A stretch of DNA of 64,000 nucleotides, taken from NCBI GenBank assembly GCA_015232855.1, contig JADFYW010000004.1, positions 21,488-85,487 of the forward strand, read 5' to 3'. Of this stretch, positions 16,875 through 42,774 are shown one piece after another. A program made the position numbers and the translations under genes. The first letter of the stretch is position 1. Every line of letters begins with the position of its first letter. This DNA is from Fibrobacteria bacterium. Lineage in GTDB: Bacteria > Fibrobacterota > Fibrobacteria > UBA11236 > JADFYW01. Under the pieces are notes generated by a model, which saw only the letters and a program-made list of their open reading frames with translations, was not told the DNA's origin and did not search any database.

Positions 16875-19800
16875 ATGATCAATATTTCCATTACCCTCGA
16901 TGGCCAGAAACTATCAATTGAGAATAATCAAACCATTCTTGATGTATGCCGTCAAAACGGGAAAGAAATTCCAGCTTTCTGTGATAGCGACCAATTAGAA
17001 CCTATAGGTACTTGCCGGATATGTGTTGTAGAAGCTGTTGGAGAGGGACTGATAACATCCTGCAACACTAAGGTTCGTGATGGCATGATCATTTTAACAG
17101 ATAGTGAAAAAGTTATTGAATCCCGTAAAAAAACGCTGGAAACGCTTTTATCCCGGCATTATGCTGATTGTACGGCTCCTTGCCAGGATGCTTGCCCAGC
17201 CGGTATCGATATTCAGGGTTATCTTGCCCTCATTCGCAGGGGATCCTTTGCCGAGGCTGTTCAGCTTATCAAAGAACGCTTGCCATTACCGGGCATTATA
17301 GGACGCGTTTGCCCCCGTCCCTGTGAATCCGCGTGTCGTCGTACTCTGGTAGACGAACCTATTGCTATTTGTCAGCTCAAACGCTTTGTAGCTGATTCTG
17401 AATTATTAAACCAAGGTATACCAACACCTGACTCTGTTACTTCCAGCGGAAAAAAGGTAGCCATTATTGGTTCGGGCCCGGCAGGGCTTTCTGCTGCCTA
17501 TTATCTTAGGCGTAATGGGCATGATGTAACCATTTACGAGTCGCTTCCAAAACCCGGTGGAATGCTTAGATACGGTATTCCTGATTATCGCCTTCCACCC
17601 GATATTCTGGATAAAGAAATTAATGCCATAACTGACATGGGGGTAGAGCTCATTACCGGAAAATCTTTGGGTAGTGACTTCAGTGTTGAGTCATTGAAGA
17701 AAGATGGCTTTAATGCTGTGTTCCTGGCAATAGGGGCCCATAACAGTTATAAGCTTAAATTAGAGGGCGAAGAGTCAGAGGGCGTGTTTCCCGGAACAGA
17801 TTTTTTGCGTCAGTTCACCATGGGTGAATCCATTGAAATTGGTGATAAGGTTGCCGTATTGGGAGGTGGCAATACCGCTATTGACGCTGCACGTACCGCG
17901 CTTCGCATGGGAGCAGCGGAGGTTACCATTGTTTATCGTCGTACCCGTGCAGAGATGCCCGCCAGCAGCTGGGAAATTGATGAGGCTGAGGAAGAAGGCG
18001 TTAAACTGCATTTTCTCACAGGCCCGATCCGGATTGTTACTGAAGAAGGGCGGGCAACTGGTATCGAATGCATTAAAATGGAATTGGGACAAGCTGATAA
18101 AAGTGGTCGCCCACGTCCACAGCCCGTTGAGGGCTCCGAATTCATTATTCCTGTTACCGCTGTCATTCCAGCTATTGGTCAGGGGCCGGATATATCTCCG
18201 GTTAAGGATACAGAACTGCAATTTTCCAGATGGGGAACCATTGATGCTGATGAACATTCTCAGGTCACTAATATTGAAGGTGTTTTTTCTGGTGGTGATT
18301 GTCAGACCGGCGCTGCAACCGCAGTAGAAGCTATTGCTGCTGGTAGACGTGCAGCTAACGGTATTCATGCTTATCTTAAAGGAAAAACACTGGTCCCAGA
18401 AAAGGTGTACAACGCTTCAAAGGGAAAGCTAAATGAACTTGAAGGCAGAGAAGAATTTGCTCAAATAGAAAAAAAATCCAGGCTTGCAATGCCTTTGAAC
18501 CATCCAAAATCACTCAAAAATAATTTTGAAGAATTAGAAAAGGGTTTTGCTGAGGCGGGAGCTATAGAGGAAGCTGGCCGTTGTCTGGAATGTGGTTGTA
18601 AGGCTAACTATTATTGTGATTTACGTCGGTGGTCTGCAGAATATGGTATGACTACCCAACCTGAACCGGTTGATGTAAATTCATATCCCAGGCTTAATCC
18701 TCACCCCTTTATTGAAGCTGACAGGAACAAGTGCATCTCCTGTACTCTTTGCCAAAGAATGTGTCATGACGTAGAAGGTATAGGTGTACTTGGTATTGAT
18801 TACCGGATTGATCCTTTACCTTTTGAACAGCCACTAGGCTCAACAGCATGTGAATCCTGTGGGCAATGTGTTGGGAGTTGCCCAGTGGGGGCTCTGGTTG
18901 TCAAAAACGGCCTTAAGCCAGAAAGGGAAGTAAAAACGACCTGTACATTCTGTGGTTGTGGTTGCGGTATTTACCTTGGAGTGCGCGGCAATGAAGTTGT
19001 GTATGTAAGAGGGGATGAAGAAAACCCCGTAAACAAAGGAAATTTATGCGTAAAGGGGCGTTTTGGAAATGATTTTATAAATCACCCTGATCGTCTTACG
19101 ACTCCGCTTATTCGGGAGAACGGGAAACTTCGTGAAGCATCCTGGAAAGAAGCAATGACACTCATTGCCGAAAAGCTTCCCCAGTTTAAGGGTGAAGCCT
19201 TCGTGGGTTTCTCTTCTGCTCGATGTACAAACGAAGATAACTACATCTTCCAAAAATTTGTCCGCAAGGTAATGGGAACAAACAATATTGATCACTGTGC
19301 CAGGCTCTGTCATGCTCCGTCAGTGGCCGGTCTTGCGCAAAGTTTGGGAAGTGGTGCTATGACCAATTCCATGGGCGAGATAGGGAAGGCCTCTACGATT
19401 TTTGCTATTGGTACCAATACCACATCTGCTCATCCTATTATTGGCCTTGAAGTGAAAAAAGCAGTGAAAAATGGAGCAGTGCTTATTGTAGCGAATCCCA
19501 AGCGGATTGATTTATGTCGTTTTGCCGATGTATTTCTGCAGCATAAACCAGGCACTGATGTCGCACTGGTTATGGGGATGGCTAATGCTGTTATTGAAGC
19601 GGGACTTGCTGATGAATCATTTATAAAGGACCGTACAGAAAATTATGCGGCTTTTATGGAATCTCTTAAGGCTTTTACTCCCGAGTTTGTAGAAAAAACT
19701 ACGGGCGTTCCCTGGACACTGATACAAAAAGCAGCAAAAATATATGCATCCAGTAAACCATCTTCCATTTTGTACTCAATGGGAATTACCCAGCATACTC

Positions 19801-20948
19801 ACGGTACTGATAATGTACTGGCGGTCAGTAATCTGGCTTTACTTACAGGGAACATTGGTCTGCCCTCTACCGGAGTTAATCCGTTAAGAGGACAAAATAA
19901 CGTTCAGGGCGCCTGTGATATGGGGGCACTCCCGAACGTTTACCCAGGGTATCAGAAAGTAGATGCTGAAGACGCTCAAAAGAAATTTGAAGCCGCCTGG
20001 GGAAGTAAGCTAAGCGGTAGTGCCGGACTAACCCATTTGGAAGTGCTGGAAGGGATTGATAACGGAACGGTTAAAGCTTTGTATCTTATGGGCGAAAACC
20101 CAATCATTAGTGAAGCTAACTCGAACCATGTGAGTGAATCCCTTGGAAAACTGGAGTTTTTTATTGCCCAGGATATTTTCCTTACCGATACCGCCAAAAT
20201 GGCTGATGTGGTATTACCTGCAGCCTCCTTTGCCGAAAAGGACGGAACATTCACCAATACCGAACGTAGAGTCCAGAGAGTTCGCAAAGCGATTAAACCG
20301 GTTGGCGAATCCTGGTCTGACTGGGCTATTACCTGTGAAATGGCTAAATCCATGGGAGAGAATGGATTTGATTTTGAAAGTGCAGAAGAGGTGATGAAAG
20401 AGATTGCTTCACTTACTCCCAGTTATGGTGGCATAACATATGAACGCATTGATGAAGTGGGACTTCACTGGCCTTGCCCTGATGCCAAACATCCGGGTAC
20501 ACCAATCCTTCATTCTCAACAGTTCCCGAGACCGGAAGGAAAGGGAAAATTCCTGCCATTGGAATATCGCTCGCCTGATGAAAATGCCTGTAACGATTTT
20601 CCTCTGGTATTAACTACAGACCGCAGTCTGTATCAGTATCACACCTCTACCATGACTGGACGGGTTGAGGGACTTATGGAAATCGATGGCAAAGAACGGG
20701 TAAATATCCATCCAGATGATGCAGCCAAACTTGGTATAACAGATGCCTCTTCGGTGGAAGTCTCCTCACGTCGCGGTGTTGTGAAGGCGTATGCGAAGGT
20801 GACTGATGTTGTACCCGTTGGTGTAGTATCCATGACCTTCCATTATCCGGAAAGCCCGACCAATGTGTTGACAAACGCAGCCATGGACCCGGTAGCTAAA
20901 ATCCCTGAAACCAAGGTTTGTGCAGTAAGCATTAAAAAACTGGGATAA
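16875..20948 (+). CDS. Fused oxidoreductase: 2Fe-2S ferredoxin + GltD-like FAD/NAD(P)H subunit + 2x[4Fe-4S] + molybdopterin formate dehydrogenase alpha (Cys-type)
   Basis: N-terminus like NuoG/FdhA 2Fe-2S (CDSDQLEPIGTCRICVV); GltD/DPD-type Fe-S region (CTAPCQDACPAGIDIQGY...CPRPCESACRR); two Rossmann GxGxxG sites (IIGSGPAGLSAAYYL, VLGGGNTAIDAART); ferredoxin CxxCxxCxxxCP pairs; MopB N-terminal CTFCGCGCG; FDH active-site stretch HCARLCHAPSVAGL aligned to E. coli FdhF ARVUHGPSVAGL with Cys replacing Sec (no in-frame TGA). Confidence 0.85.
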   Translation: MINISITLDGQKLSIENNQTILDVCRQNGKEIPAFCDSDQLEPIGTCRICVVEAVGEGLITSCNTKVRDGMIILTDSEKVIESRKKTLETLLSRHYADCTAPCQDACPAGIDIQGYLALIRRGSFAEAVQLIKERLPLPGIIGRVCPRPCESACRRTLVDEPIAICQLKRFVADSELLNQGIPTPDSVTSSGKKVAIIGSGPAGLSAAYYLRRNGHDVTIYESLPKPGGMLRYGIPDYRLPPDILDKEINAITDMGVELITGKSLGSDFSVESLKKDGFNAVFLAIGAHNSYKLKLEGEESEGVFPGTDFLRQFTMGESIEIGDKVAVLGGGNTAIDAARTALRMGAAEVTIVYRRTRAEMPASSWEIDEAEEEGVKLHFLTGPIRIVTEEGRATGIECIKMELGQADKSGRPRPQPVEGSEFIIPVTAVIPAIGQGPDISPVKDTELQFSRWGTIDADEHSQVTNIEGVFSGGDCQTGAATAVEAIAAGRRAANGIHAYLKGKTLVPEKVYNASKGKLNELEGREEFAQIEKKSRLAMPLNHPKSLKNNFEELEKGFAEAGAIEEAGRCLECGCKANYYCDLRRWSAEYGMTTQPEPVDVNSYPRLNPHPFIEADRNKCISCTLCQRMCHDVEGIGVLGIDYRIDPLPFEQPLGSTACESCGQCVGSCPVGALVVKNGLKPEREVKTTCTFCGCGCGIYLGVRGNEVVYVRGDEENPVNKGNLCVKGRFGNDFINHPDRLTTPLIRENGKLREASWKEAMTLIAEKLPQFKGEAFVGFSSARCTNEDNYIFQKFVRKVMGTNNIDHCARLCHAPSVAGLAQSLGSGAMTNSMGEIGKASTIFAIGTNTTSAHPIIGLEVKKAVKNGAVLIVANPKRIDLCRFADVFLQHKPGTDVALVMGMANAVIEAGLADESFIKDRTENYAAFMESLKAFTPEFVEKTTGVPWTLIQKAAKIYASSKPSSILYSMGITQHTHGTDNVLAVSNLALLTGNIGLPSTGVNPLRGQNNVQGACDMGALPNVYPGYQKVDAEDAQKKFEAAWGSKLSGSAGLTHLEVLEGIDNGTVKALYLMGENPIISEANSNHVSESLGKLEFFIAQDIFLTDTAKMADVVLPAASFAEKDGTFTNTERRVQRVRKAIKPVGESWSDWAITCEMAKSMGENGFDFESAEEVMKEIASLTPSYGGITYERIDEVGLHWPCPDAKHPGTPILHSQQFPRPEGKGKFLPLEYRSPDENACNDFPLVLTTDRSLYQYHTSTMTGRVEGLMEIDGKERVNIHPDDAAKLGITDASSVEVSSRRGVVKAYAKVTDVVPVGVVSMTFHYPESPTNVLTNAAMDPVAKIPETKVCAVSIKKLG

Positions 20949-21153: not shown

Positions 21154-22485
21154 ATGACTGTATCAAATCTTGAACAGGCTAAACAGGAAACTATTCTAAA
21201 CTGTGTGGCTGATGGTGTATTTACTGTTGATAATGAGCGAAAAATCCAGTTTTTTAATCGTGCTGCGGAGAGAATTACGGGGTTTAAAGCCGGAGAAGCA
21301 ATAGGTAAAAAGTGCAGTGAAATTTTTCGTCCCAGTATATGTGGCAATGCCTGTACACTTGCACAAGTTGAGCAGACCGGAAGGGACATCATTAATCAAC
21401 CAGTTAAAATATACGCTAAGACAGGTCGTTCAGTGCATGTGAGTGTAAGTGCTGCAGTATTAAGAGATGAAGCGAACAATATAATTGGAGGTGTAGAAAC
21501 GTTTAGAGACTTATCTACCGAAGAAGATTTGCGACGGCAAATTAAAAAGTCATATACCTTTCAGGATATCATCAGCCGCCATCCCCGCATGCATGACATT
21601 TTTTCAATATTGCCGGATATTGCGGGTTCTGAGGTTTGTGTATTAATAGAAGGGGAGAGTGGGACCGGTAAAGAACTCTTTGCGAGGGCTATCCATAATC
21701 TGAGTCCCCGTAAGGAAAAGCCCTTTATAGCCATTAATTGCGGTTCTTTACCAGACAGTCTGCTGGAGTCCGAGTTATTTGGATATAAAAAAGGGGCCTT
21801 TACTGACGCTAAAAAAGATAAACCGGGACGTTTCGACCTGGCTAAAGGTGGCTCATTGTTTCTTGATGAAATCGGAGATGTTTCACCCGCTTTGCAAGTA
21901 AAATTACTGAGGGTTTTGCAAGAGAAAATGTATGAGCCGTTGGGCGCTATACAGTCGGTTCACGCCAATGCCCGCATTATTGCAGCCACCAATCAGAGTT
22001 TGCAGGAAAAAATGAAAGCAGGTGAGTTTCGTGATGATCTTTATTACCGTTTGAATGTGTTGCGTCTGGAAATCCCGCCTTTAAGAGAGAGACGTTGTGA
22101 TGTCCCTATCCTTATTGACCATTTTCGCAGGTGTTTAAATACAGAAACCGGTAAAAACATTGAAGCGGTGGATGAGACTGCAATAGATCTCTTAATGGGG
22201 TATGATTTCCCCGGGAATGTGCGAGAGCTGGAAAATGTGATACAACATGCATTTGTTTTATGTAAAAATTCTGTTATCCGTGTAGAGCATTTGCCCCGTG
22301 AATTAACGGGGGGGCATAGTGTAAAACTTGATATTGGAAACCTTTCACTGGAAGCCATAGAAAAACGGGCCATTAAAGAAGCACTGCTTAACAACAAGGG
22401 TAATCAGACTAAAGCTGCCAGGCAACTGAAGATTGACGCCAGTACGTTGTATAGGAAGATGAAGCGGTATAAGCTGAAACATTAG
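21154..22485 (+). CDS. Sigma-54-dependent transcriptional activator with N-terminal Cys-containing PAS sensor and Fis-type HTH (paralog 1)
   Basis: Walker A GESGTGKE, ESELFGYKKGAFTDA (GAFTGA variant), Walker B LFLDEIGD, arginine-finger region, C-terminal HTH_8 QTKAARQLKIDASTLYRKMKRY; PAS with KKCSEIFRPSICGNAC. Confidence 0.9.
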   Translation: MTVSNLEQAKQETILNCVADGVFTVDNERKIQFFNRAAERITGFKAGEAIGKKCSEIFRPSICGNACTLAQVEQTGRDIINQPVKIYAKTGRSVHVSVSAAVLRDEANNIIGGVETFRDLSTEEDLRRQIKKSYTFQDIISRHPRMHDIFSILPDIAGSEVCVLIEGESGTGKELFARAIHNLSPRKEKPFIAINCGSLPDSLLESELFGYKKGAFTDAKKDKPGRFDLAKGGSLFLDEIGDVSPALQVKLLRVLQEKMYEPLGAIQSVHANARIIAATNQSLQEKMKAGEFRDDLYYRLNVLRLEIPPLRERRCDVPILIDHFRRCLNTETGKNIEAVDETAIDLLMGYDFPGNVRELENVIQHAFVLCKNSVIRVEHLPRELTGGHSVKLDIGNLSLEAIEKRAIKEALLNNKGNQTKAARQLKIDASTLYRKMKRYKLKH

Positions 22486-22810: not shown

Positions 22811-23035
22811 CTTCCGCTATTGCATATTGCATGAGTTTAAAAATGTATAAGCTTATTGTTGATGAATTCAACTTATATTGCCCTGTTTTCAAAACTGGCA
22901 CGATAATTGATATAGGATACAACAGATAGCAGTTCGATACGAACATAGCTGCTACGTGTAATATATATGGTGAGGTATGTTATCCATAGATGTGGGTAAT
23001 AGTTTTATGGTGGTGCAAAAAAGGAAGGTCATAAT

Positions 23036-23425
23036 ATGAGTACCAATGGTAAAAAGATTCTTGTGGTTGATGATGAGCCGGATGTGGTTAAGTACATAAC
23101 CAGCCTTCTGGAGGACAATGGCTTTGAAACGGTTACCGCATGTAACGGCAAAGAAGGAATGGAGACGGCCATTAAGGAAAAGCCCGACCTTATCAGTCTG
23201 GATGTAACTATGCCGGGAGAGACTGGTGTTCGCATGTTACGCAATTTGAGTGAGCATGAAGCAACAAAAGAAATCCCTGTGATTCTAGTGACCGGAGTCG
23301 ATTTTTCTTTTAAAAGTTTTATTGAACAACGTAAACAGGTCGTTCCTCCTAAAGCCTATTTTGAAAAACCTATTGATAAGGATAAACTGCTGGCAGAAGT
23401 TAAGAGTTTATTGGGGGTTGGCTAG
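23036..23425 (+). CDS. Single-domain response regulator (CheY-like receiver)
   Basis: ILVVDDEPDV...DLISLDVTMPGETG...K motif set; 129 aa. Confidence 0.85.
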   Translation: MSTNGKKILVVDDEPDVVKYITSLLEDNGFETVTACNGKEGMETAIKEKPDLISLDVTMPGETGVRMLRNLSEHEATKEIPVILVTGVDFSFKSFIEQRKQVVPPKAYFEKPIDKDKLLAEVKSLLGVG

Positions 23426-23585: not shown

Positions 23586-24689
23586 TTGGCACCCTATAAC
23601 GGCAACATAGAAGACTTTCCCGGAGAGAGTGGTATCCTTTTTGAAAAGGTTCCATGCTATATAGCAATTTTGGATCGGGACTATAAAATTGTCCGTTCCA
23701 ATGAAAAATTAAGAAATACCTTTGGTTCTTGCCGTGGTCGTCATTGCTATGATGTCTATAAAAAACGCTCTGTAGTTTGTGAAAAATGCCCTACGGAAAT
23801 GACCTTTCATGATGGTCAAGAACACACTTCTACCCATGTTGGTATAAATAAGGTGGGTGATGAGACCCATTATATTGTTACCACTTCTCCATTAATGGGT
23901 GAAAACGGTAACGTTGACTACGTAATGGAAATTCTCACAGATATTACTCAGATAAAATCTCTGGAGAAAGATAAGTTAGAAGCGGAACGGTTGGCCGCTG
24001 TAGGTCAAACAGTGGCCGGATTGGCGCATAGTGTGAAAAATATCCTGATGGGGGTTGAGGGTGGAATGTACATGGTTGAGGTTGGCATAAATAAAGGTGA
24101 CCAGTCTCGTACAGCAGAGGGTTGGGACATGCTTCAGCGGAACATTACCAAGGTTTCAACTTTAGTTAAGGACTTTTTAAGTTTTGCCAAGGGGCGGAAG
24201 CCAGTGGTGAAATTAATTGACCCAAATGTTTTGCTCGATGATATTGTAGAGCTTTATGCGGATACAGCCAGCAAAATGGGGATAGAGCTTAAAAAAACCA
24301 GGAAAAAATATATGGCTTCTGCCCCTCTGGATCCTGATGCCATACATACCTGTCTAACAAATCTGGTGTCAAATGCTATTGATACGTGTCATATCAGTAG
24401 TAAAGATAAAAAAATAGTGATTTTGGATGCGGTTGAAGATGGCGGTAATATCACCATAAGCGTTTCAGACAATGGTTCAGGAATTGATTATGATATTCAG
24501 AAAAAAATATTTACCACATTTTTCACTACAAAGGGCGGTAATGGAACGGGATTAGGACTATTGACCACTCGCAAAATAGTTCAAGAACATGGCGGAAAAA
24601 TTGAAGTTGAATCCATTCCGGGGAAGGGTTCGGTTTTTAAAATAGTCTTGCCGCGAAAACAATTACCAGTAATGAATGATTCACCTTAA
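23586..24689 (+). CDS. Soluble sensor histidine kinase with Cys-rich PAS-like sensor (start may lie upstream)
   Basis: HisKA H-box AGLAHSVKNIL; HATPase N/G boxes (DNGSGID, GGNGTGLGL); N-terminal CRGRHCYDVYKKRSVVCEKCP. Confidence 0.8.
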   Translation: MAPYNGNIEDFPGESGILFEKVPCYIAILDRDYKIVRSNEKLRNTFGSCRGRHCYDVYKKRSVVCEKCPTEMTFHDGQEHTSTHVGINKVGDETHYIVTTSPLMGENGNVDYVMEILTDITQIKSLEKDKLEAERLAAVGQTVAGLAHSVKNILMGVEGGMYMVEVGINKGDQSRTAEGWDMLQRNITKVSTLVKDFLSFAKGRKPVVKLIDPNVLLDDIVELYADTASKMGIELKKTRKKYMASAPLDPDAIHTCLTNLVSNAIDTCHISSKDKKIVILDAVEDGGNITISVSDNGSGIDYDIQKKIFTTFFTTKGGNGTGLGLLTTRKIVQEHGGKIEVESIPGKGSVFKIVLPRKQLPVMNDSP

Positions 24690-24702: not shown

Positions 24703-25209
24703 ATGAGTAATGAATTAGGTAAAACAGTACTTATTGTGGATGATGAAGACGATGTTGTTCGTTATTTGAGCATGGTTCTTCAAGATGCAGGATTTACGGT
24801 AGTTACCGCTTTTGATGGTATTGAAGCAATAGAGAGACTCAAGGAAAAAACACCTGATCTTATATCGCTTGATATTGTGATGCCCAAAGGATCCGGCATT
24901 AAAATGCATCGGGAATTAAAGAAACATCCGGAATGGTCAAAAATACCCGTTATGATAGTTACCGGCCATGCGCGTGATGAGTTGGGAAAAACGGATTTTG
25001 ATGAAATGACGATGTCCGGGCCGGGGATATATCTGGAAAAGCCGGTGAATGCAATTAATTATGTGGCTGCAGTTAAAAAGATTCTTTGCTTAGAAGATGG
25101 CGACTGTGGTGGAGAAAAGGATTTGAAGTCAGAAGTGAAACAATTATTGGATACAGCTGATGCTGATATGCTGGAGAAGATTAAGAAGATGATGAGAGGG
25201 GAAGAGTAG
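24703..25209 (+). CDS. Response regulator receiver protein with acidic C-terminal extension
   Basis: VLIVDDEDDVVRYLS...DLISLDIVMPKGSG receiver motifs; 168 aa. Confidence 0.85.
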   Translation: MSNELGKTVLIVDDEDDVVRYLSMVLQDAGFTVVTAFDGIEAIERLKEKTPDLISLDIVMPKGSGIKMHRELKKHPEWSKIPVMIVTGHARDELGKTDFDEMTMSGPGIYLEKPVNAINYVAAVKKILCLEDGDCGGEKDLKSEVKQLLDTADADMLEKIKKMMRGEE

Positions 25210-25352
25210 GGATGTGCGTTCTTATGTTACGTAATTATCCAAAAACCAGTCATTCCGGCTTGTCCGGAATCAAAAGCATAAATTCTGAATCAGGAAGATA
25301 ATATGCAATCTGTTTTTTTTGCAAATGATTTTCTTTTCCAAATATTGGTTAC

Positions 25353-25617
25353 CATTCTAAAGCCTGATTCCAGACAAGCTGGAATGACTATCTCTCCCAT
25401 TCTAAAGCCTGATTCCAGACAAGCCGGAATGACTATCTCTCCCATTCTAAAGCCTGATTCCGGACAAGCCGGAATGACTGTGTCTACCATTCTAAAGCTT
25501 GATTCCAGACAAGCTGGAATGACTATCTCTCCCATTCTAAAGCTTGATTCCAGACAAGCTGGAATGACTATGTCTCCCATTCTAAAGCCTGATTCCGGAC
25601 AAGCCGGAATGACTGTT
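25353..25617. repeat. Tandem array of about 5.9 copies of a 45-bp REP-containing unit (not CRISPR)
   Basis: Unit CATTCTAAAGCCTGATTCCAGACAAGCTGGAATGACTATCTCTCC repeated head-to-tail with a few SNPs; each unit contains the palindrome ATTCCRGACAAGCYGGAAT; no unique spacers. Confidence 0.85.
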
Positions 25618-25654
25618 TTGAAACAAAAATAAGATAAACAAAGAAGAAGATGTT

Positions 25655-30613: not shown

Positions 30614-31003
30614 TCAGTGACGGCAATTACCCGAGCCCTGGCAAACCTGGTTTTGCTCAATTAATGGTAATTTGCCTTCTATAAAAGCATCAACAACGAT
30701 ACCAATTTCAGCACTGGTATTATTAAAGTAGACACCTATTCCAACCTCATTAAAAGCGGAAAGCGGGCGTAATCCTATTCCTCCTACAATAATGGCTGTA
30801 ACGTTTTCCTGTGCAAGTAAATTCACAGGAACAAGACATCCACCTTGTGCATGTTCTTTGTTTCCCAATATAGAGACATTCTTAATTTCTCCATCTGCAA
30901 CGTCAACCAGAGTAAATGAATCACAATGGCCAAAATGATTTGAACGTATTCCCTCAAGACCTCCGATTCCTTTAGACGGAACAGCTATTTTTGCTTTTTG
31001 CAT
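30614..31003 (-). CDS. NifX/NifB-C-terminal-like dinitrogenase FeMo-cofactor-family small protein (non-nif context)
   Basis: 129 aa; KIAVPS...GHCDSFTLVD...AIIVGGIG pattern of the PF02579-type fold; C-terminal CQGSGNCRH. Confidence 0.65.
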   Translation of the reverse strand: MQKAKIAVPSKGIGGLEGIRSNHFGHCDSFTLVDVADGEIKNVSILGNKEHAQGGCLVPVNLLAQENVTAIIVGGIGLRPLSAFNEVGIGVYFNNTSAEIGIVVDAFIEGKLPLIEQNQVCQGSGNCRH

Positions 31004-31073: not shown

Positions 31074-31091
31074 AAGCGAAATTTGTGCCAA
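31074..31091 (-). promoter_or_regulatory. Candidate sigma-54 (-24/-12) promoter upstream of the NifX-like gene
   Basis: Minus-strand reads TTGGCACaaatttcGCtt: GG-N10-GC spacing satisfied, -24 TGGCAC perfect, -12 TCGC partial; about 60 bp upstream of the start at 31003. Confidence 0.4.
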
Positions 31092-31165
31092 TAAAAAGTT
31101 CTATTGATAAACAGTAATTGGATTCTTTTCAATATTGGCTGTTATTTGTAAATGTTAAGAACAAG

Positions 31166-31243
31166 TCATTACCCGGCTTGACCGGGTAATCCATCTAAAA
31201 TTCGACGATTTGCTGGATTGCCCGGTCAAGCCGGGCAATGACA
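31166..31243. repeat. REP-family variant copies (GTCATTACCCGGCTTGACCGGGTAAT / ATTGCCCGGTCAAGCCGGGCAATGAC)
   Basis: Two palindromic units in opposite orientation between the sigma-54 activator and the NifX-like gene; a third copy is at 30571-30598. Confidence 0.7.
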
Positions 31244-31361
31244 TATTGAGTGTATTTACCAATATATGCCAATACTGAACAGATACAAATTTAGTACATC
31301 TTATATTGATGTAAATGGTGCGTAATGAATCATGTTGCACCAATGTATTGCAATTCCGCAA

Positions 31362-32705
31362 TTATTGTAGCATTCCAAATTTTTTCATTTTACGCCAGAG
31401 CGTACTTTTATTTATCCCCAGGTATTCCGCAGTAAGTTTTTTACTGTTATTAAACTTCCTCAATGCTTTCCGGAGTGCCATTTCTTCTGCCTGGTGCAGG
31501 GGATGTTGAGGCTCTTGTGTGGCAAGGGGCTGGTCCGGTAAATTTTTAGTGAGTTCAGAAGGGAGATGACGGGGCTGAATTACAGAATTCCGGCACAGAA
31601 CGAACGCGTACTCAATGAAATTTTCAAGTTCACGCACGTTTCCGGGATAGTTATATCGCATAAGAAGATCCAGAGCGTCTTCAGAAACGTCCTCGATATC
31701 TTTACCTTTCTGAACATTAAACATTTGAATAAAATGGTCAATAAGGAGCGGAATGTCTTCGCGTCTTTTTGAAAGAGGGGGAAGGTAGAGGCGGATTACA
31801 TTGAGCCGGTAATAGAGGTCGTCTCTAAAGTCACCATTAGCGACCAGTTCTGAAAGCGGTCGGTTGGTTGCTGCAATAATCCGAACATTGGCTTTTACCG
31901 AACATTCTGAACCAAGGGGATCGTATTCTTTTTCTTGTAATACCCGAAGCAGTTTGGTTTGGAGAACCGTGGAAATATCTCCTATTTCATCCAGGAATAA
32001 TGTGCCTCCTTCAGCCAAAGCAAAGCGTCCGGGTTTATTTTTCTTAGCATCAGTAAAAGCGCCCTGTACATAGCCAAAAAGTTCAGACTCCAAAAGTGTA
32101 TCTGGTAAGGCCGTACAATTAAGGGCAATGTATTTACCTTTACGACCACTCAGGTTGTGGATTGCTTTCGCAAAGAGCTCTTTACCAGAGCCACTGGGAC
32201 CTTCAATGAGAACTGTACTGTTACTTTTTGCAAGATCGGGTAATATATCGATAATCTTATGGATCTCATGATTTTTGGAAATGATGTCTTCAAAAGAGTA
32301 TTTGTTTTTAATCTTTTTTCGTAGCAATTCAAGTTCGGAGAGATTACGGAAGGTTTCCACTCCACCTATTATTTTATTGGTTTGATTTCGAAGGGTAGAT
32401 GTGGAAATACTGATAGGGATTTTCTGACCGCTATTGTCCAGAATAGTTACTCTTCGATTAACTATGGACTCACCACTTTGCAGGGTTTGTTGAAGGGAAC
32501 ACCCCTTTTTACAAATATTAGCTCTGAAAACATCAGAACATTTTTTGGTTAACGCTTCTGTTTTAGACACCCCGGTGATTTGCTCCGCAGCTCGGTTAAA
32601 GAAGGTGATGTTGTAGTTGAGATCTATGGTAAAAACACCATCAGCAATAGAATCAAGAATGGTGTCTCTGGCTTCTTCGGGTGTGGGATTCTGAGTATCT
32701 TTCAT
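31362..32705 (-). CDS. Sigma-54-dependent transcriptional activator with Cys-containing PAS sensor (paralog 2)
   Basis: GPSGSGKE, ESELFGYVQGAFTDA, LFLDEIGD, C-terminal Fis HTH (KKLTAEYLGINKSTLWRKMKKFG); PAS with KKCSDVFRANICKKGC. Confidence 0.9.
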   Translation of the reverse strand: MKDTQNPTPEEARDTILDSIADGVFTIDLNYNITFFNRAAEQITGVSKTEALTKKCSDVFRANICKKGCSLQQTLQSGESIVNRRVTILDNSGQKIPISISTSTLRNQTNKIIGGVETFRNLSELELLRKKIKNKYSFEDIISKNHEIHKIIDILPDLAKSNSTVLIEGPSGSGKELFAKAIHNLSGRKGKYIALNCTALPDTLLESELFGYVQGAFTDAKKNKPGRFALAEGGTLFLDEIGDISTVLQTKLLRVLQEKEYDPLGSECSVKANVRIIAATNRPLSELVANGDFRDDLYYRLNVIRLYLPPLSKRREDIPLLIDHFIQMFNVQKGKDIEDVSEDALDLLMRYNYPGNVRELENFIEYAFVLCRNSVIQPRHLPSELTKNLPDQPLATQEPQHPLHQAEEMALRKALRKFNNSKKLTAEYLGINKSTLWRKMKKFGMLQ

Positions 32706-34300: not shown

Positions 34301-34658
34301 TGATAACTATTCTCTTCTATTAATAAAATACGTAACCATATTTAAAACGCAAAATCTATGCCAATTAGGGTGATGGCCGAAAAGTTGGAACGGTAAAAGT
34401 TGGAACGCTTTTTGCAACATATATAGTAGAGCCTGAAACAGATTAAAAATGTTGCAAATATGCAATTGTATGTTGCAAAAGAGAGGTGGAAATAGGATAT
34501 GATGCACGTTAAGAAATTTTTTTATTTATCTGCAATTTTTGTTATAGTGGGCGTAGTCTTTCTTCAAGTCTTCTTTATTTTGCCTGGGGTTAGTTGGAAC
34601 GTCCGCACCACAGGTGTAGTGGCAATTTCAATTTTAATGTATTTGTCCTGCGCTCTGT

Positions 34659-36008
34659 TTGTCACATTATGGTATAAATACGTGGAATAAATTGTCTATT
34701 AAAGACATTATCCTCGATTCCATTGCTGAGGGGGTATTTACCGTTGATCGTGATTTTACCATTAATTATTTCAATCGACGGGCCGAGTTTATTACCGGCA
34801 TATCCAGAGAAAAGGCCATTGGTTGTAAATGTTATGATGTATTCCGTGTAAATATTTGTAATACTAATTGTGCCCTAAAAAATGCTATTAAAGATGATGC
34901 AAAATATGCTGTTAACAATGTGGATATCATAAACAGCAAGGGCAAGAAAGTACCTATCAGCATAAATGCTTCTGTACTTAAAGATGATAATGGAAACATT
35001 TTAGGTGGTGTAGAGACTTTTCTTGACCAAAGTGAAGTGAGTACCCTGAGAAAAACAATTAAGGCTGGATATAGTAGCGAAGATATCATTTCACAGAACA
35101 AGCAAATCCATGATATGCTTGATATTCTTCCTGATATCGCTGAAAGCACGAGCACTGTTTTAATAGAAGGTGATAGTGGAACGGGTAAAGAGCTGATAGC
35201 CAGAGCTATACATAATTTAAGTGGGAGAAAAGGTCGCTTTGTAGCTGTTAATTGTGCTTCCCTCCCTGAGTCACTTATAGAATCAGAACTTTTTGGGTAT
35301 GAAAAAGGTGCTTTTACTGATGCCAAGAAAAATAAACCTGGCAGGTTTGCATTGGCAAAAGGAGGAACACTTTTTCTTGATGAAATAGGAGAACTGCCTG
35401 GTACCGTTCAATCGAAATTATTGCGGGTGTTACAAGAAAAAGTATATGAACCGTTGGGAGGTGAAATACCAATACCAACTGATGCCCGCATCGTGTCTGC
35501 TACCAATAGAAATTTAAAACAGCGGGTAGAAGAAAAGGCTTTTAGACAGGACTTGTTTTATCGGCTTAATGTCATAAAGCTGTTATTACCGCCATTAAAT
35601 CAGAGAAAAGAAGATATACCTCTGTTAATAGAACATTTCATTAACAAAATGAATGCGATTACTGGCAAAAATATACAAAGTGTCTCAGAAGATGCTCTTG
35701 AACTATTGACTAACTATGATTACCCGGGTAATATTAGAGAATTGGAAAATGTGATTGAATATGCTTTTGTAATGTGTAAAGAGCGGGTCATAGAACCAAA
35801 ATACCTTTCAAAAGACATCATCACAAACCAAAAGACAGTAAACCACAATACTTTCTCAGAACAATACCCACGTTTTGGATTAATTGAAAAAGACCAGATT
35901 GTTGATGCACTCCACAGGTCATACGGAAAAAAATCAAAAGCCGCAGAACTGCTGGGCGTTAATCGGAGTACCTTGTGGAGACAGATGAAAAAACATCATA
36001 TGGTGTGA
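34659..36008 (+). CDS. Sigma-54-dependent transcriptional activator with Cys-containing PAS sensor (paralog 3)
   Basis: GDSGTGKE, ESELFGYEKGAFTDA, LFLDEIGE, Fis HTH (SKAAELLGVNRSTLWRQMKKH); PAS with GCKCYDVFRVNICNTNC. Confidence 0.9.
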   Translation: MSHYGINTWNKLSIKDIILDSIAEGVFTVDRDFTINYFNRRAEFITGISREKAIGCKCYDVFRVNICNTNCALKNAIKDDAKYAVNNVDIINSKGKKVPISINASVLKDDNGNILGGVETFLDQSEVSTLRKTIKAGYSSEDIISQNKQIHDMLDILPDIAESTSTVLIEGDSGTGKELIARAIHNLSGRKGRFVAVNCASLPESLIESELFGYEKGAFTDAKKNKPGRFALAKGGTLFLDEIGELPGTVQSKLLRVLQEKVYEPLGGEIPIPTDARIVSATNRNLKQRVEEKAFRQDLFYRLNVIKLLLPPLNQRKEDIPLLIEHFINKMNAITGKNIQSVSEDALELLTNYDYPGNIRELENVIEYAFVMCKERVIEPKYLSKDIITNQKTVNHNTFSEQYPRFGLIEKDQIVDALHRSYGKKSKAAELLGVNRSTLWRQMKKHHMV

Positions 36009-36094: not shown

Positions 36095-36110
36095 TGGCAC
36101 ATAATTTGCA
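36095..36110 (+). promoter_or_regulatory. Consensus sigma-54 promoter (TGGCAC-N5-TTGCA) for the downstream NifX-like gene
   Basis: Exact TGGCACataatTTGCA at 36095-36110; the NifX-like ATG is at 36124, so a very short or absent leader. Confidence 0.6.
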
Positions 36111-36123
36111 ATAACTATGAGGT

Positions 36124-36582
36124 ATGGAGCACGATATAAAAATAGCAATTCCATTAACAGGTGAGCGTGTTGCTCATCGACTTGATTGCGCAGAGTCCAT
36201 TTTATGGATTACTTTTCGGGATGGACTTATTGTATATAAGAAAAAAAGCAAATATCCTTTTGAACAATGCAGGTTTTCTATCCAGCATTTTCTTGATTAT
36301 GGTGTGAGGGCACTCATTTGTGGAGCGTTAGAAAAACATATGGTCTATAAACTATCTGTCCATGGGATTACTGTATTCCAGTGGGTTACTGCAGATGCTG
36401 ATGATGCTGTTGTGGCTTTCCAGAAAGGGGAACTCTCACCATTTATGATAATTGAACCTGGAGGTCGAAAACGGGGAAGCTGGAGCGGAAAGAATAATCG
36501 GGACTATGATGTTCAAGATACAACAGCAATATACCGCAGTCAAGGTAGGGGACGAAGAAAAGGACGGCGAGGTAATGAGTAA
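36124..36582 (+). CDS. NifX/NifB-C-terminal-like FeMo-cofactor-family small protein with Arg/Gly-rich tail
   Basis: MEHDIKIAIPLTGERVAHRLDCAES...ALICGALE pattern; 152 aa. Confidence 0.6.
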   Translation: MEHDIKIAIPLTGERVAHRLDCAESILWITFRDGLIVYKKKSKYPFEQCRFSIQHFLDYGVRALICGALEKHMVYKLSVHGITVFQWVTADADDAVVAFQKGELSPFMIIEPGGRKRGSWSGKNNRDYDVQDTTAIYRSQGRGRRKGRRGNE

Positions 36583-36727: not shown

Positions 36728-37063
36728 ATGCCGAGAAATAATAAAACAGGCCCCCGGGGCCAGGGACCCGGTACGGGCAGGGGAATGGGAGCCTGCGAGG
36801 AAGGCGTTGGTTCAACTGCTACTATGACCGGAATACCAGGACATAACGCTGGATATGGTCGTGATGGTGGAAGACGCCGTGGCCGATGTGCGGGAAATGG
36901 ATACACTGGGAACGGTTATTCCTTCGATACCCCAAAAATGGAAAATAATCTGGAACAGTTAGAGTCAGAAATGAAGAGTCTTGAAGAAAGAATAAAGGAT
37001 ATACATAGTCACATAAATAAGCTGAAAGAAGACTCGTCAGAAGCAGATAACAATACTGACTGA
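36728..37063 (+). CDS. Gly/Arg-rich protein with C-terminal coiled coil (DUF5320-like)
   Basis: Low-complexity GPRGQGPGTGRGMG N-half and an LEQLESEMKSLEERIKDIHSHINKLKE heptad C-half; often found next to NifX-like genes. Confidence 0.4.
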   Translation: MPRNNKTGPRGQGPGTGRGMGACEEGVGSTATMTGIPGHNAGYGRDGGRRRGRCAGNGYTGNGYSFDTPKMENNLEQLESEMKSLEERIKDIHSHINKLKEDSSEADNNTD

Positions 37064-37179: not shown

Positions 37180-40100
37180 TTATGCTCTATCCTGTTTCAC
37201 CGATATCCCGTGTTTCTTTAAAATATGGTAAAAAGATGTCCGGTTCACTTTAGCGTGCTCTGCGCATAATGGGATATTATTGTTATAGCGTTTCAGGAGC
37301 TTAATCAGGTAATCTTTTTTCAATGATTCCAGGTAGCGATTTAAGCTGAGTTCTTCCGCTGAGGCTGGTTCTGCACAGGAGGTGTGGCATATAACTTTAA
37401 CAGGGAGGTCCACGGTAGTTGGCTCATTTTCGGTACAAAGAGAAAATACCTGATAAAGGGTTTGTTTTAATTCTTTTACATTTCCCGGCCATGAGTAATT
37501 TATCAGAGTCTTATATAAGTCATTATTTCCTTTTTTGATTTTTTTGTTATAGACCGTGTTATACTCAAGCCGGAAAAAATCAGTAAGATCAGGAATGTCT
37601 TCTTTTCGATCACAGAGACGGGGAAGGGTTAATCGTCTGGTGGCAATGCTGCAAAACAACTCTTCACTAAAATAATTATCCAATACCATATCCTCCAGAT
37701 TTCTAATGGATGAGGATATAATGCGTACATCAATATTTTGTTCTACGATAGAGCCGGTACGCTGTATTTTTTTCTTTTGCATACAATTAAGCACTCTTGC
37801 CTGGAGTTCATAATTAAGGTGATCTATTCCCTTGATATAGATGCTACCGGTATGGGCCAGCTCAAACAATCCTTTTTTTATATCATAGCTCCCATCAGGG
37901 AGTTTTCGTTCATAACCGAATAGTTCGTTTTCGAGAAGATTATCGGGAAGTGAAATACAGTTAATTGTCAAATATGGTGCATTACGACGTTTGCCCATAA
38001 AATGGAGCGTGTGGGCAAAAAGTTCTTTGCCTGTTCCCGCATCTCCATGAATATGAATATTATCGTCCTTTCTGGAGAATGTTTCCATTTGTTCTCTCAG
38101 TTCAATCATCAACTGACTCTTGCCCACGATGGTTACATGATTACCCGGCTCATGTACAGCACTACTTACCAATTGTTCACCAAAACATTCCTGCAATATG
38201 CTGCGCAATAAAGAAGTATCCAAAGGCTTTTTTAAGAAATATTGAAATCCGGCTTCTTTTGCGTTTTCTAATATACCATCCTCAAGTAACAGCCCTGTTA
38301 ATAATACTGCCTTTGATGGAGATTGAATTTTATTTAGGGCCAGCATTAATTCATTTCCATTCATCTGTTCCATATTATAATCGATAATAACCAGACGATA
38401 GGGATGTTCCGGCAGATTATCAAGCATATGCTCACCGCCAAAAAAGATGTCAGCTTTAAGTCCGATATCTTCTAAATATTCACCGATAAGTTTGGCCAGG
38501 GTACGATCGTCATCAACTACCGCAATAGAGGCGGGAATGGGTTCTTCTTCATTGACCGGTTTTGCCTGGATGGATGGTTTACTGGTACCGGTATCACTTT
38601 CTACAACCAATGCCATCTGGTTACCGATTTCCGTTAAGAGCTTTTCTGATTTTACAGGCTTGGTTAAGAAGGGGACTCCAAATTTCATTACTTCAAGTGC
38701 ATCTTGAGAAGGAGCATAGCCACTAATGAGTATTGTTTTAACATCATCGTTGATTTCCCGGAACTGAAAGAAACAATCCCGGCCGCCCATCTCCGGCATT
38801 ATCATATCAAGAACGACCACGCCTATCTGTTGGTAGTTATCTTTATAATAAGACATAGCGTCCTGGGAATTACTAAAGAGCTTATATTTATATCCGCTAT
38901 CCTCCATGGTACTATTGTACATTTTGAGCAATAATTCATCGTCATCAATTATGATAACCTCTTTATCTGCCTGAACGCCTGGTTTGATAGTAATGGTTTG
39001 ATGCTTATCTTGCTTTACTACCTCACATTCATGATAAGGCAAAAATATGTGGACCGAAGTACCATGGTTCACTTCACTTTCTATTTCAATTTTCCCTTTG
39101 TGGCTTTTGATACAACCATAAGAACTGGCCAGACCAAAACCGGTACCCTGTTCATTTTTTGTAGAGAAGAAGGGTTCAAAAATACGCTTCTTATCCTCTT
39201 CCTTAATTCCGTTGCCGGTATCTTTAACGGTTAGTTTGATATACTTACCCGCACCGAGATTGTCATCGGTGAGCCAGGTAAGGGATGTTTCTATACTCAA
39301 AGTGCCACCCTGGCTCATCGCGTGCCGTGAATTAGCCACCAGGTTGAGAATGACATTCTGTATCTGGGCCTGGTCGCATTTTAAAGTGGCTTTTTCTTTG
39401 GTGAAATGTTTAACTACAGTGATATTTTTTTCAAGGGTATGAGTAAGTAGGGCGAGGGTTTCTTCCAGAAGTTCATGGATATCTGTTTCTACAAATTTAT
39501 ACACACTCTTCCTGGCAAATGCCATTAATTTTTTAACCAGGTCGCCACCGCGTTCACAAGCCATGGTTACTATTTCCATACTTTCTTTTACTTTTTCCAG
39601 GTTGTAAGGATCACGCTCTACCTTTTCTGCAGACCCGAGTATAGCACCCAGCACATTATTGAAGTCATGGGCAATACCGCCCGCCAGGGTGCCTATTGAT
39701 TTCATCTTTTCCAGTTCAAATGCTCGCTTTTCAAAGGCTTTACGTTCAGTGATGTCAGTGAAATTTTCAATAATGCCTATAAGGTTATTTTGATGGTCTT
39801 TAAATGGAATACCCTTTAAAATGCATGTTAATTTACGGCCGTTACGAAGGCTCAGGTCGACTTCCTGATTTATCTTTTCATTACCGTTTAAAATCTGGGT
39901 GAGTGGACATTCTGATTTATTACAGAACGGTCCTTGCCAGATATCGTAACAGTTCGATCCTAAAACGTCTTCCTGTTTAAGGTCAAACAGAGAACAAAAG
40001 GTGTGATTTACCCGGAGTATCTTGAATGATTTACTGATAACACAAGAAGGTACTGCAAGATTAAACAGTTGGTGTAATTCAGATTGTGTTTGTTTAAGTG

Positions 40101-40482
40101 AGCTACTTAGTTGTTTCTGGTGGGTGATATCTATCCCGGTCAACAAGTATGTATCTGATATTTCACCGGTACCAGTACCATGGGTAAGTTTCCATTTACG
40201 CCAGTTGACGTTATGTTCCTTATCAGAAAGGGACGACTCAAATTCGGAACTGAAACCGTGTTGCTTCAAAGACGATATTCGTTTGGTAAAACTGCTCTGA
40301 TTTTCTTCAGGAAAAAGTTTGAAGACATTTTGCCTTTTACTGATTGGGGATGTGATTTCGAAGTAGTCTAAAAAGGCCTGGTTACTAAATTGGATTTGTC
40401 CGTCGTTGAAAAAACGGCAGATAGCTGTATCTACGACATCTAAAATTTCTTTATCATTTCTCATACTATGATTAAGAAGCAA
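37180..40482 (-). CDS. Hybrid sensor: PAS - PAS(Cys) - HisKA - HATPase - REC - REC - degenerate sigma-54-type AAA+ - Fis HTH
   Basis: H-box LAGGIAHDFNNVLGAILG; HATPase (DTGNGI, GTGFGL); two receivers (IIIDDDELL, AVVDDDRTL); AAA+ Walker A GDAGTGKE, with ELFGYERKLPDGSY where GAFTGA would be; C-terminal HTH AEHAKVNRTSFYHILKKHG; PAS with SNCYDIWQGPFCNKSEC. Confidence 0.8.
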   Translation of the reverse strand: MLLNHSMRNDKEILDVVDTAICRFFNDGQIQFSNQAFLDYFEITSPISKRQNVFKLFPEENQSSFTKRISSLKQHGFSSEFESSLSDKEHNVNWRKWKLTHGTGTGEISDTYLLTGIDITHQKQLSSSLKQTQSELHQLFNLAVPSCVISKSFKILRVNHTFCSLFDLKQEDVLGSNCYDIWQGPFCNKSECPLTQILNGNEKINQEVDLSLRNGRKLTCILKGIPFKDHQNNLIGIIENFTDITERKAFEKRAFELEKMKSIGTLAGGIAHDFNNVLGAILGSAEKVERDPYNLEKVKESMEIVTMACERGGDLVKKLMAFARKSVYKFVETDIHELLEETLALLTHTLEKNITVVKHFTKEKATLKCDQAQIQNVILNLVANSRHAMSQGGTLSIETSLTWLTDDNLGAGKYIKLTVKDTGNGIKEEDKKRIFEPFFSTKNEQGTGFGLASSYGCIKSHKGKIEIESEVNHGTSVHIFLPYHECEVVKQDKHQTITIKPGVQADKEVIIIDDDELLLKMYNSTMEDSGYKYKLFSNSQDAMSYYKDNYQQIGVVVLDMIMPEMGGRDCFFQFREINDDVKTILISGYAPSQDALEVMKFGVPFLTKPVKSEKLLTEIGNQMALVVESDTGTSKPSIQAKPVNEEEPIPASIAVVDDDRTLAKLIGEYLEDIGLKADIFFGGEHMLDNLPEHPYRLVIIDYNMEQMNGNELMLALNKIQSPSKAVLLTGLLLEDGILENAKEAGFQYFLKKPLDTSLLRSILQECFGEQLVSSAVHEPGNHVTIVGKSQLMIELREQMETFSRKDDNIHIHGDAGTGKELFAHTLHFMGKRRNAPYLTINCISLPDNLLENELFGYERKLPDGSYDIKKGLFELAHTGSIYIKGIDHLNYELQARVLNCMQKKKIQRTGSIVEQNIDVRIISSSIRNLEDMVLDNYFSEELFCSIATRRLTLPRLCDRKEDIPDLTDFFRLEYNTVYNKKIKKGNNDLYKTLINYSWPGNVKELKQTLYQVFSLCTENEPTTVDLPVKVICHTSCAEPASAEELSLNRYLESLKKDYLIKLLKRYNNNIPLCAEHAKVNRTSFYHILKKHGISVKQDRA

Positions 40483-42773: not shown

Positions 42774-42774
42774 T

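Follow-up and report, generated by a model that had tools for sequence, protein, structure and literature searches.

An iron-sulfur (Fe-S) PAS domain has been described in OrpR (DVU2106), a redox-sensing sigma-54 activator of Desulfovibrio vulgaris Hildenborough, in which conservation is complete at C52, C61, and C65 and extends to D/E54 (Fievet et al., 2021, PMC8359166). Here, OrpR and the Fe-S kinase NreB are compared with six signalling proteins that share three PAS cysteines (hereafter the triad), namely three sigma-54 activators (EBP1, EBP2, and EBP3) and three kinases (HK4, HK5, and HK6), all encoded in a 64,000-nt stretch of a Fibrobacteria metagenome-assembled genome (MAG) (assembly GCA_015232855.1, contig JADFYW010000004.1, positions 21,488 to 85,487; the window). 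Anaerobically purified OrpR is brown, and its UV-vis and electron paramagnetic resonance spectra indicate a [4Fe-4S]2+ cluster, which mild oxidants convert to [3Fe-4S]1+; redox control is lost in C52S/C61S/C65S, and the triple Cys-to-Ser and PAS-deletion strains express orp constitutively (PMC8359166). The wild-type protein is active near -455 mV but inactive near -280 mV, its oxidation leaves DNA binding unaffected, the Cys-Cys distances in that paper's own model are 5-8 Å, and OrpR was seemingly restricted to delta-Proteobacteria (PMC8359166).

The other described systems are two NreB proteins. The PAS domain of Staphylococcus carnosus NreB, an O2 sensor, holds an O2-labile [4Fe-4S]2+ cluster on CX2CX11CX2C, according to the accounts given of Mullner et al. 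(2008) in PMC10468136 and PMC13478379. NreB of Bacillus licheniformis, a sulfide sensor, has a three-Cys [2Fe-2S] cluster with a labile sulfur ligand on CX2CX11C (PDB 9WEX; PMC13478379, 2026). NreB is the sole Fe-S example mentioned in a 2023 survey of PAS domains (PMC10468136).

A cysteine triad in six PAS domains

The six triads were confirmed in frame and within Pfam PAS matches, at most a few bases from where an earlier reading of the sequence (the original prediction) had placed them. The proteins and their sites are the following (domains from Pfam).

21154 to 22485, plus strand: EBP1, 443 aa; PAS (21187-21522), sigma-54 AAA+, AAA lid, and HTH_8, with a GAFTDA loop; triad C54/C63/C67 at 21313-21354 (C-x8-C-x3-C, OrpR-type), with E56
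31362 to 32705, minus strand: EBP2, 447 aa; PAS (32331-32669), sigma-54 AAA+, and HTH_8; triad C56/C65/C69 at 32499-32540 (C-x8-C-x3-C), with D58
34659 to 36008, plus strand: EBP3, 449 aa; PAS (34710-35036), sigma-54 AAA+, and HTH_8; triad C58/C67/C71 at 34830-34871 (C-x8-C-x3-C), with D60 and an additional C56
23586 to 24689, plus strand: HK4, histidine kinase of 367 aa; PAS (23640-23951) and HATPase_c; triad C54/C65/C68 at 23745-23789 (C-x10-C-x2-C-P), with D56
46693 to 49053, plus strand: HK5, hybrid kinase of 786 aa, identical to NCBI MBF0430018.1 of a Fibrobacteria bacterium MAG; three PAS domains (PAS1 at 46825-47172), HisKA, HATPase_c, and REC; triad C83/C94/C101 in PAS1 at 46939-46995 (C-x10-C-x6-C-P), with E85
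37180 to 40482, minus strand: HK6, 1100 aa; PAS, a second PAS with the triad (PAS2, 39739-40062), HisKA, HATPase_c, two REC domains, sigma-54-type AAA+, and lid; triad C178/C187/C192 at 39907-39951 (C-x8-C-x4-C-P), with D180

The original prediction wrote the motif as K-x-C-[SY]-[ED]-[VI]-[FYW]-x(5-9)-C-x(3)-C, which has no literal match among the six sites because its spacer counts are off: the spacer after the aromatic residue is x4 in the activators, x3 separates the last two cysteines in the activators only, and HK5 has Ser at the aromatic position. Amended to C-[SY]-[DE]-[VI]-x(5,7)-C-x(2,6)-C, the pattern gives six matches in the six-frame translation of the window, precisely at the reported sites, where nucleotide shuffles lead one to expect 0.03 and residue-shuffled open reading frames (ORFs) 0.005. 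When the window's nine PAS domains are all aligned with MAFFT, the six triads occupy three common columns, and the residue at C+2 is acidic in every case, as listed above. The other three domains of that alignment (HK5 PAS2, HK5 PAS3, and HK6 PAS1) have none of the three cysteines, and no PAS matches were found in further ORFs of the window. The claim that six signalling proteins share a Cys triad is thus borne out; the six do not form one uniform motif, and divide into four spacing classes with differing additional conserved ligands.

The triad is a genuine, functional motif. PAS domains do not carry it generically, because it is missing from sister domains of the same proteins and the number of cysteines at the site is bimodal: the 421 PAS domains that span the site in the best 150 proteins of a kinase-type profile search (see below) comprise 60 without a cysteine there, nine with a single one, 29 with two, and 323 with at least three, which is the pattern expected of co-acting residues. 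The probability that the triad recurs by chance, or through a generic PAS composition of the host organism, is next to nil: this explanation is already refuted by the excess of matches over expectation (six against 0.005-0.03), by the three sister domains without three cysteines, and by the invariance of the triad in homologues across phyla.

The E-alpha helix, the E-F segment, and the F-alpha helix wall the canonical PAS cofactor pocket. AlphaFold2 models built from deep alignments for the PAS domains of EBP1 (predicted local distance difference test [pLDDT] 87.3) and HK4 (pLDDT 95.2) have a fold of this cofactor-pocket type (five-stranded sheet, helices C-alpha to F-alpha), and in both E-alpha begins with the first cysteine, the short E-F segment holds the second within it or at its end, and F-alpha directly follows the third. 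Specifically, C54 of EBP1 opens helix 54-57, C63 closes helix 59-63, and C67 directly precedes helix 68-75; the triad of HK4 (model numbering) stands at the start of helix 43-48, in the next loop, and directly before helix 58-65. Foldseek matches both models to cofactor-binding PAS domains (NifL FAD-PAS, LOV, and DosP) with TM 0.7-0.8. LOV domains are the nearest solved relatives by sequence (6rhg for the EBP1 PAS, E 3.8e-6), they have the same fold, and the flavin-adduct Cys of their 'GRNCRFLQ' aligns with the first triad Cys; however, the other residues of that motif are replaced ('KKCSEIFR' in EBP1, 'HCYDVYKK' in HK4), and the two further window cysteines have no LOV counterpart. Membership of the LOV family, with its GXNCRFLQ motif, was rejected, as only the Cys position aligns.

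The triad and the acidic residue at C+2 probably line the PAS cofactor pocket as a metal-cofactor site, which would hold an OrpR-type [4Fe-4S] cluster in the activators and an Fe-S cluster or another thiolate-ligated metal in the kinases. The original prediction had offered Fe-S, Zn, Fe2+, and thiol redox as options; a cofactor site in the PAS pocket is supported, and of these options Fe-S has been shown experimentally for precisely the activators' motif, in OrpR (PMC8359166).

OrpR-type activators

EBP1, EBP2, and EBP3 have the architecture of OrpR-type activators, with an N-terminal PAS domain (PAS_9/PAS_4), Sigma54_activat with a GAFTDA loop, AAA_lid_14, and HTH_8 (Pfam), an architecture that HK4, HK5, and HK6 do not have. 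Their motif, C-x-[DE]-x6-C-x3-C, has both the C-x8-C-x3-C spacing and the D/E at C+2 of OrpR; the kinases differ from it in spacing (x10/x2 in HK4, x10/x6 in HK5, and x8/x4 in HK6), in additional ligands, and in output. A profile built from the three activator PAS domains retrieved 1,673 homologues, of which the best 120 were inspected for the triad: C-x8-C-x3-C is kept in 120/120, D/E stands at C+2 in 117 of 122 motif copies, and the three cysteines are among just 10 invariant columns of a 121-sequence alignment. In a scan that took a single genome from each species, at least 572 loci matched, 80 of which were kept (L001-L080; D. vulgaris is not among them). The triad is retained in 79 of the 80 kept activator loci, and 46 of the 80 have a gene of the Nitro_FeMo-Co type within 4 kb of the activator.

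Among the matches listed are members of Desulfobacterota, Lentisphaerota, Planctomycetota, Spirochaetota, Acidobacteriota, Zixibacteria, Nitrospirota, Ignavibacteriales, Fibrobacterota, and Firmicutes, and the nearest relatives of the EBP1 PAS, again among the matches listed, come from Lentisphaerales MAGs (63-64% identity). Because homologues with the triad occur in so many phyla, the OrpR-type family, together with its candidate operator (see below), reaches far beyond delta-Proteobacteria. The window thus departs from the published picture, in which OrpR was seemingly confined to delta-Proteobacteria (PMC8359166), both in its host, a Fibrobacteria MAG, and in the phyla of its homologues; it also has three paralogues in 15 kb, and one of them, EBP1, does not lie beside ORP genes.

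On the combined evidence of spacing, acidic residue, and domain order, EBP1, EBP2, and EBP3 are assigned to the OrpR type, as new members of a described family of Fe-S redox-sensing sigma-54 activators. The statement of the original prediction that the domain could not be placed in a named PAS subfamily is therefore superseded for the activators, for which the OrpR type exists. We infer an Fe-S cluster in EBP1, EBP2, and EBP3; the cluster and redox mechanism of the OrpR type itself come from the literature (PMC8359166). By homology to D. vulgaris OrpR, the activators would hold a redox- and O2-sensitive [4Fe-4S]2+ cluster within their PAS domains. At low redox potential the cluster would be intact, and the PAS domain would permit AAA+ remodelling of sigma-54 RNA polymerase and hence transcription; at raised potential the cluster would be oxidised or lost, and the PAS domain would block activation while DNA binding persists. 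For the activators, then, the recurrence of the triad is explained.

Two of the profile homologues (P0002 and P0004) have two tandem OrpR-like triad PAS domains, and three of these four copies end in 'C-P' like the kinase classes. The two proteins may be intermediates that link the activator type to the kinase type.

Kinase-type triad classes and their cofactors

A word-index search for homologues with the kinase PAS domains gave one match for HK5 and none for HK4; as this method was too insensitive, an exhaustive HMMER search was used instead. The kinase-type profile matched 63,950 proteins at E<=1e-3, generic PAS domains included, and, at E<=1e-30, 701 database representatives. Of the 150 best representatives, 145 have one triad domain or more, giving 314 such domains in all, many proteins having two to five in tandem. 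The sampled proteins are mostly histidine kinases, and one is a chemoreceptor with five triad domains. The classes, and the candidate fourth ligand of HK4, are the following.

C-x10-C-x2-C-P, 166 domains, window member HK4: at the start of the first strand, a fourth Cys ('VPCY') in 34% and Asp in 31%
C-x10-C-x6-C-P, 61 domains, window member HK5: His at C1+5 in 95%, His two residues before the third Cys in about 60%, E-H-x-H in 95% and 97%, and D/E in 98%
C-x8-C-x4-C, 27 domains, window member HK6: D/E at C+2 in 81%, as in OrpR
23655 to 23657, plus strand: codon of HK4 C24 ('VPCY'), candidate fourth ligand at the start of the first beta strand

The HK5 class has the consensus C-[YH]-x-[LVI]-[TS]-H-x4-P-C-x4-H-x-C-P, plus E-H-x-H and D-x-H on the sheet; the additional class-conserved residues of HK5 itself are H88, H99, H117, H119, D130, and H132. 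Besides the cysteines, this class (HK5 PAS1, P0001, and the 61 database domains) has four to five His and one acidic residue, mostly on two adjacent strands, a set of potential ligands that looks larger than a single [4Fe-4S] cluster would need. HK6 has no GAFTGA-like loop in its AAA+ domain ('RKLPDGSYD' stands at the expected place), and so it may not activate sigma-54.

Among solved structures, none comes close to the kinase-type profile, the best being LOV2 (E 2e-3), which covers the sheet half only; 9WEX is not among the best 60 of the 84 matches to this profile (E up to 1). The literature search, which extended to papers outside subscription-only access, returned nothing on the kinase-type triad classes beyond OrpR and the two NreB proteins. 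The kinase classes are abundant, uncharacterised PAS variants, in which Fe-S binding is likely. In the mechanism we propose, cysteines at equivalent structural positions would be joined by additional ligands (C24 in HK4, several His and Asp in HK5, and D/E only in HK6), and they would most likely hold a metal centre, either Fe-S or another with thiolate ligands, that controls autokinase activity through its state.

For three cysteines that ligate an Fe-S cluster in the PAS domain of a kinase, there is a crystallographic precedent in B. licheniformis NreB (9WEX). Like the window kinases, that protein has three cysteines in its PAS domain, placed in the helical stretch lying between beta strands two and three; it differs in that its short and long spacers come in the reverse order and in that its crystal structure has no Asp, Glu, or His near the cluster, whereas the window classes conserve D/E, His, or a fourth Cys. 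S. carnosus NreB, a cytoplasmic histidine kinase with its PAS Fe-S cluster on cysteines of a helical segment, likewise resembles the mechanism proposed for the window kinases; it differs in having four cysteines (CX2C...CX2C, against C...C-x(2-6)-C in the window) and no sequence likeness over the site. Membership of the NreB family was rejected, as none of the six has CX2C followed by x11 and there is no similarity over the cluster segment.

The relationship between the activator and kinase sites is less clear-cut. In an hhalign comparison of the HK4 class with the activator class (98.3% probability), the three Cys columns are superposed, with one two-residue and one one-residue indel. Kinship was tested by masking the cysteines in the OrpR-type profile and in its targets; the kinase domain nearest the OrpR type is then HK6 PAS2 (31 bits). 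An exclusive clade of triad PAS domains was considered and found no support, in that masked triad domains score below Cys-less ones; penalties for the indels at the site may contribute to these scores, and convergence is accordingly unproven. Nothing but the cysteines marks the six as one exclusive subfamily, and the triad site may be ancient and fast-evolving or may have been acquired repeatedly.

Several observations weigh against this metal-cofactor reading of the activator and kinase sites. The confidence of the EBP1 model is lowest at the site itself (mean pLDDT 67 at residues 61-70), and the match of EBP1, EBP2, and EBP3 to OrpR rests on published residue numbers and spacing rather than on a direct alignment with D. 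vulgaris Hildenborough OrpR. The alignment of 9WEX with the OrpR-type profile covers only the N-terminal strands (positions 13-49, E 0.0065) and not the Cys region. D/E at C+2 is not generally conserved in the HK4 and HK5 classes, and the C-x2-C-P element of HK4 resembles a zinc knuckle. With the cysteines masked, kinase-type triad domains have a median of 10.4 bits (n=235), below the 18.0 bits of Cys-less PAS domains of the same proteins (n=50); within the window, the Cys-less HK5 PAS3 reaches 41 bits, HK4 13, and HK5 PAS1 1. A single ancestry of the site across the classes is therefore unproven, and convergence is possible.

These results bear on the proposal of the original prediction that one ligand or redox signal feeds many outputs. 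It is not established, because the masked kinase domains have no special kinship with OrpR and because the four spacing classes have ligands of their own; clusters or metals may differ from class to class, and so may the signals that are read. According to this explanation, which is plausible although we lean away from it, the position of the site would be common but the ligand would not, with the activators sensing redox potential through [4Fe-4S] and the kinases perhaps sensing O2, NO, sulfide, iron, or something else. It accords with the class-specific conserved ligands, with the lack of additional similarity after masking, and with the precedent of NreB, whose near-identical motifs serve O2 sensing with [4Fe-4S] in S. 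carnosus and sulfide sensing with [2Fe-2S] in B. licheniformis (PMC13478379). Yet all six window domains keep C-[SY]-[DE]-[VI] and the common three columns, hhalign superposes the cysteines, and the genes lie within 28 kb with common sigma-54 and palindrome wiring (see below).

Structural or regulatory zinc in place of Fe-S, in the kinases and conceivably in all six proteins, is on balance unlikely, but for the kinases it is a serious alternative. Zinc-binding PAS domains are known in WalK, where the ligands are His, Asp, and Glu. The C-x2-C-P element of the HK4 class with its frequent fourth Cys or Asp, the conserved His of the HK5 class, the very high model confidence at the HK4 site, and the tandem arrays of two to five such domains per protein would all suit zinc; it fits poorly with the Fe-S spectra of the OrpR-type site and with a location in the cofactor pocket rather than in a peripheral knuckle. 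The named hosts of kinase-type matches, a Fibrobacteria MAG and an Elusimicrobiota genome, also speak against zinc, albeit weakly as there are two names only. An improbable alternative is a metal-free thiol/disulfide or persulfide switch, in which the cysteines would sense oxidants through disulfides. The cysteines are near one another in sequence and on adjacent elements, and thiol switches are common redox sensors; however, the three are co-conserved with acidic or His ligands that exceed the needs of a disulfide, and OrpR purifies brown with Fe-S spectra.

The kinase-type classes are abundant, often in tandem, and feed histidine kinases and at least one chemoreceptor. Their cofactor is putative, as is any signal common to them and the activators; if these classes do bind Fe-S or another metal, a cofactor and a class of signal could be predicted for a sizeable share of what these lineages have as 'PAS domain S-box proteins'.

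Promoters, operator candidate, and neighbouring operons

EBP2 and EBP3 adjoin ORP-type genes, and EBP1 has response regulator and kinase genes downstream in their place, followed by an Hdr/Dsr-like complex.

30614 to 31003, minus strand: ORP-type gene downstream of EBP2, Nitro_FeMo-Co (Pfam E 9e-17; NCBIfam MrpORP, C-terminal domain)
36124 to 36582 and 36728 to 37063, plus strand: ORP-type pair downstream of EBP3, Nitro_FeMo-Co-like and DUF5320, respectively (Pfam; NCBIfam)
45335 to 46048, minus strand: Nitro_FeMo-Co gene (Pfam E 2e-12), first of the operon running from 46048 to 40991 and divergent from HK5
23036 to 23425 and 24703 to 25209: single-domain response regulators on either side of HK4 (Pfam)

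The small Nitro_FeMo-Co proteins beside EBP2 and EBP3 match the C-terminal domain of MrpORP, an ORP complex component (NCBIfam); the third Nitro_FeMo-Co protein (45335-46048) has no NCBIfam match. The order of the Nitro_FeMo-Co-like and DUF5320 genes beside EBP3 is the same in two related loci (L059 and L070).

Sites resembling the -24/-12 elements of sigma-54 promoters, with at most one mismatch, number six in the window against 2.0 expected, and all are intergenic and co-oriented with the downstream gene; at up to two mismatches there is no enrichment (28 in the window against 29 expected).

22896 to 22911, plus strand: sigma-54-like site, one mismatch, 124 nt upstream of the response regulator-HK4-response regulator genes and downstream of EBP1
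31075 to 31090, minus strand: sigma-54-like site, one mismatch, 71 nt upstream of the ORP-type gene 30614-31003
34401 to 34416, plus strand: sigma-54-like site, one mismatch, 242 nt upstream of EBP3
36095 to 36110, plus strand: sigma-54 site, perfect, 13 nt upstream of the ORP-type gene at 36124
40478 to 40493, minus strand: sigma-54-like site, one mismatch, at the 5' end of HK6
46059 to 46074, minus strand: sigma-54-like site, one mismatch, 10 nt upstream of the gene 45335-46048

Three of these sites (within 36095-36124, 46048-46074, and 40464-40493) end 10-13 nt before an ATG, which for HK6 is that of Met7. Transcripts from them would be near-leaderless, with no room for a ribosome-binding site, unless the true starts lie further downstream.

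The palindrome ATTGCA-N4-TGCAAT, with at most one mismatch, occurs five times in the window against 0.44 expected, and none of 100 shuffles reached five.

31347 to 31362: palindrome, one mismatch, overlapping the stop codon of EBP2, with a like position in related loci
34451 to 34466: palindrome, one mismatch, in the divergent region upstream of EBP3
40534 to 40549: palindrome, perfect, 41 nt upstream of the -24 element of HK6
46125 to 46140 and 46159 to 46174: two palindromes, the first perfect and the second with one mismatch, 51 and 85 nt upstream of the -24 element of the 46048-40991 operon

No palindrome lies between EBP3 and the gene at 36124. In the related loci (L055, L059, L068, and L070 among others) there are 13 in 554 kb, 10 of the 13 directly after the stop codon of an activator, also in other phyla; in L059 and L070 the palindrome is upstream of Nitro_FeMo-Co, Nitro_FeMo-Co, and DUF5320 genes. 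ATTGCA-N4-TGCAAT is thus a good candidate for the operator of the OrpR-type activator family. EBP2 and EBP3, adjoining ORP-type genes with sigma-54-like sites and this predicted palindromic operator, would be OrpR-family regulators of those genes; EBP1 would be a paralogue upstream of a sigma-54-like promoter for the response regulator and HK4 genes, with the Hdr/Dsr-like complex further downstream. The sequence of the candidate operator differs from the published OrpR site of D. vulgaris Hildenborough, GGGCGYRTTTTGCGCCC, and so does its range: in the window the palindrome also stands before HK6 and before the 46048-40991 operon, whereas the regulon in D. vulgaris Hildenborough comprises just two orp operons (PMC8359166). 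The sigma-54-like sites and the common palindrome tie the regulators to neighbouring operons, as had been proposed for metal handling, and to ORP-type ones in addition.

The operon 40991-46048 (minus strand), behind the sigma-54-like site at 46059-46074, is magnetosome-like. Its order is Nitro_FeMo-Co, a Cys-rich Zn-ribbon-like protein, a NapH-like Fer4_5 membrane protein, a PDZ protein, a protein with two magnetochrome domains (PF18509, E 1e-13), and two CDF transporters. The best specific NCBIfam matches of the two transporters are MamM/MamB, below the equivalog cut-off, and for the first transporter they come after the generic CDF superfamily. The magnetochrome protein (42775-43506, minus strand) has three near-identical 'AATIPPGCVTCPSVANCFPGATPQGQ' repeats, with three Cys each, before its magnetochrome domains. 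Magnetotactic Fibrobacterota MAGs have been reported (Lin et al., 2020, PMC7602337).

The link to the magnetochrome/CDF operon suggests how, in an uncultured lineage, genes for iron biomineralisation could be gated by redox state. A more far-reaching idea, which we put forward tentatively and regard as rather unlikely, is that the kinase- and chemoreceptor-linked triad classes constitute a large unrecognised family of metallocofactor sensors, above all the HK5 class, which might have a mixed Cys/His/carboxylate Fe-S or heterometal centre undescribed in PAS domains, and that the kinases and OrpR-type activators form a redox-gated sigma-54 circuit that, through the common ATTGCA-N4-TGCAAT operator, controls the magnetosome-like iron-handling operon.

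A GC-rich hairpin unit of REP-like kind (ATTGCCCGGCTTGACCGGGCAAT and variants) makes up an inverted repeat of 83 nt between EBP2 and its ORP-type gene (31116-31291). Judged from the repeated translation, the unit also seems to be arrayed in tandem between the HK4 genes and the Hdr/Dsr-like complex (25303-25632), giving a spurious ORF with 'ILKPDSRQAGMT' repeats. Directly upstream of EBP1, positions 16875-20948 (plus strand) encode a 1357-aa fusion of 2Fe-2S, GltD-like NAD(P)H flavin oxidoreductase, and ferredoxin domains with a molybdopterin catalytic subunit of the formate dehydrogenase type. Elsewhere in the window, a MerR-family regulator (61328-61846, minus strand) with a Cys-rich C-terminal tail (CPQKNTTRTCPAFKETTKPCW...CRTC) adjoins a second pair of HdrD/DsrK-like and membrane subunits (58808-61317), and it is possibly a further metal or redox sensor.

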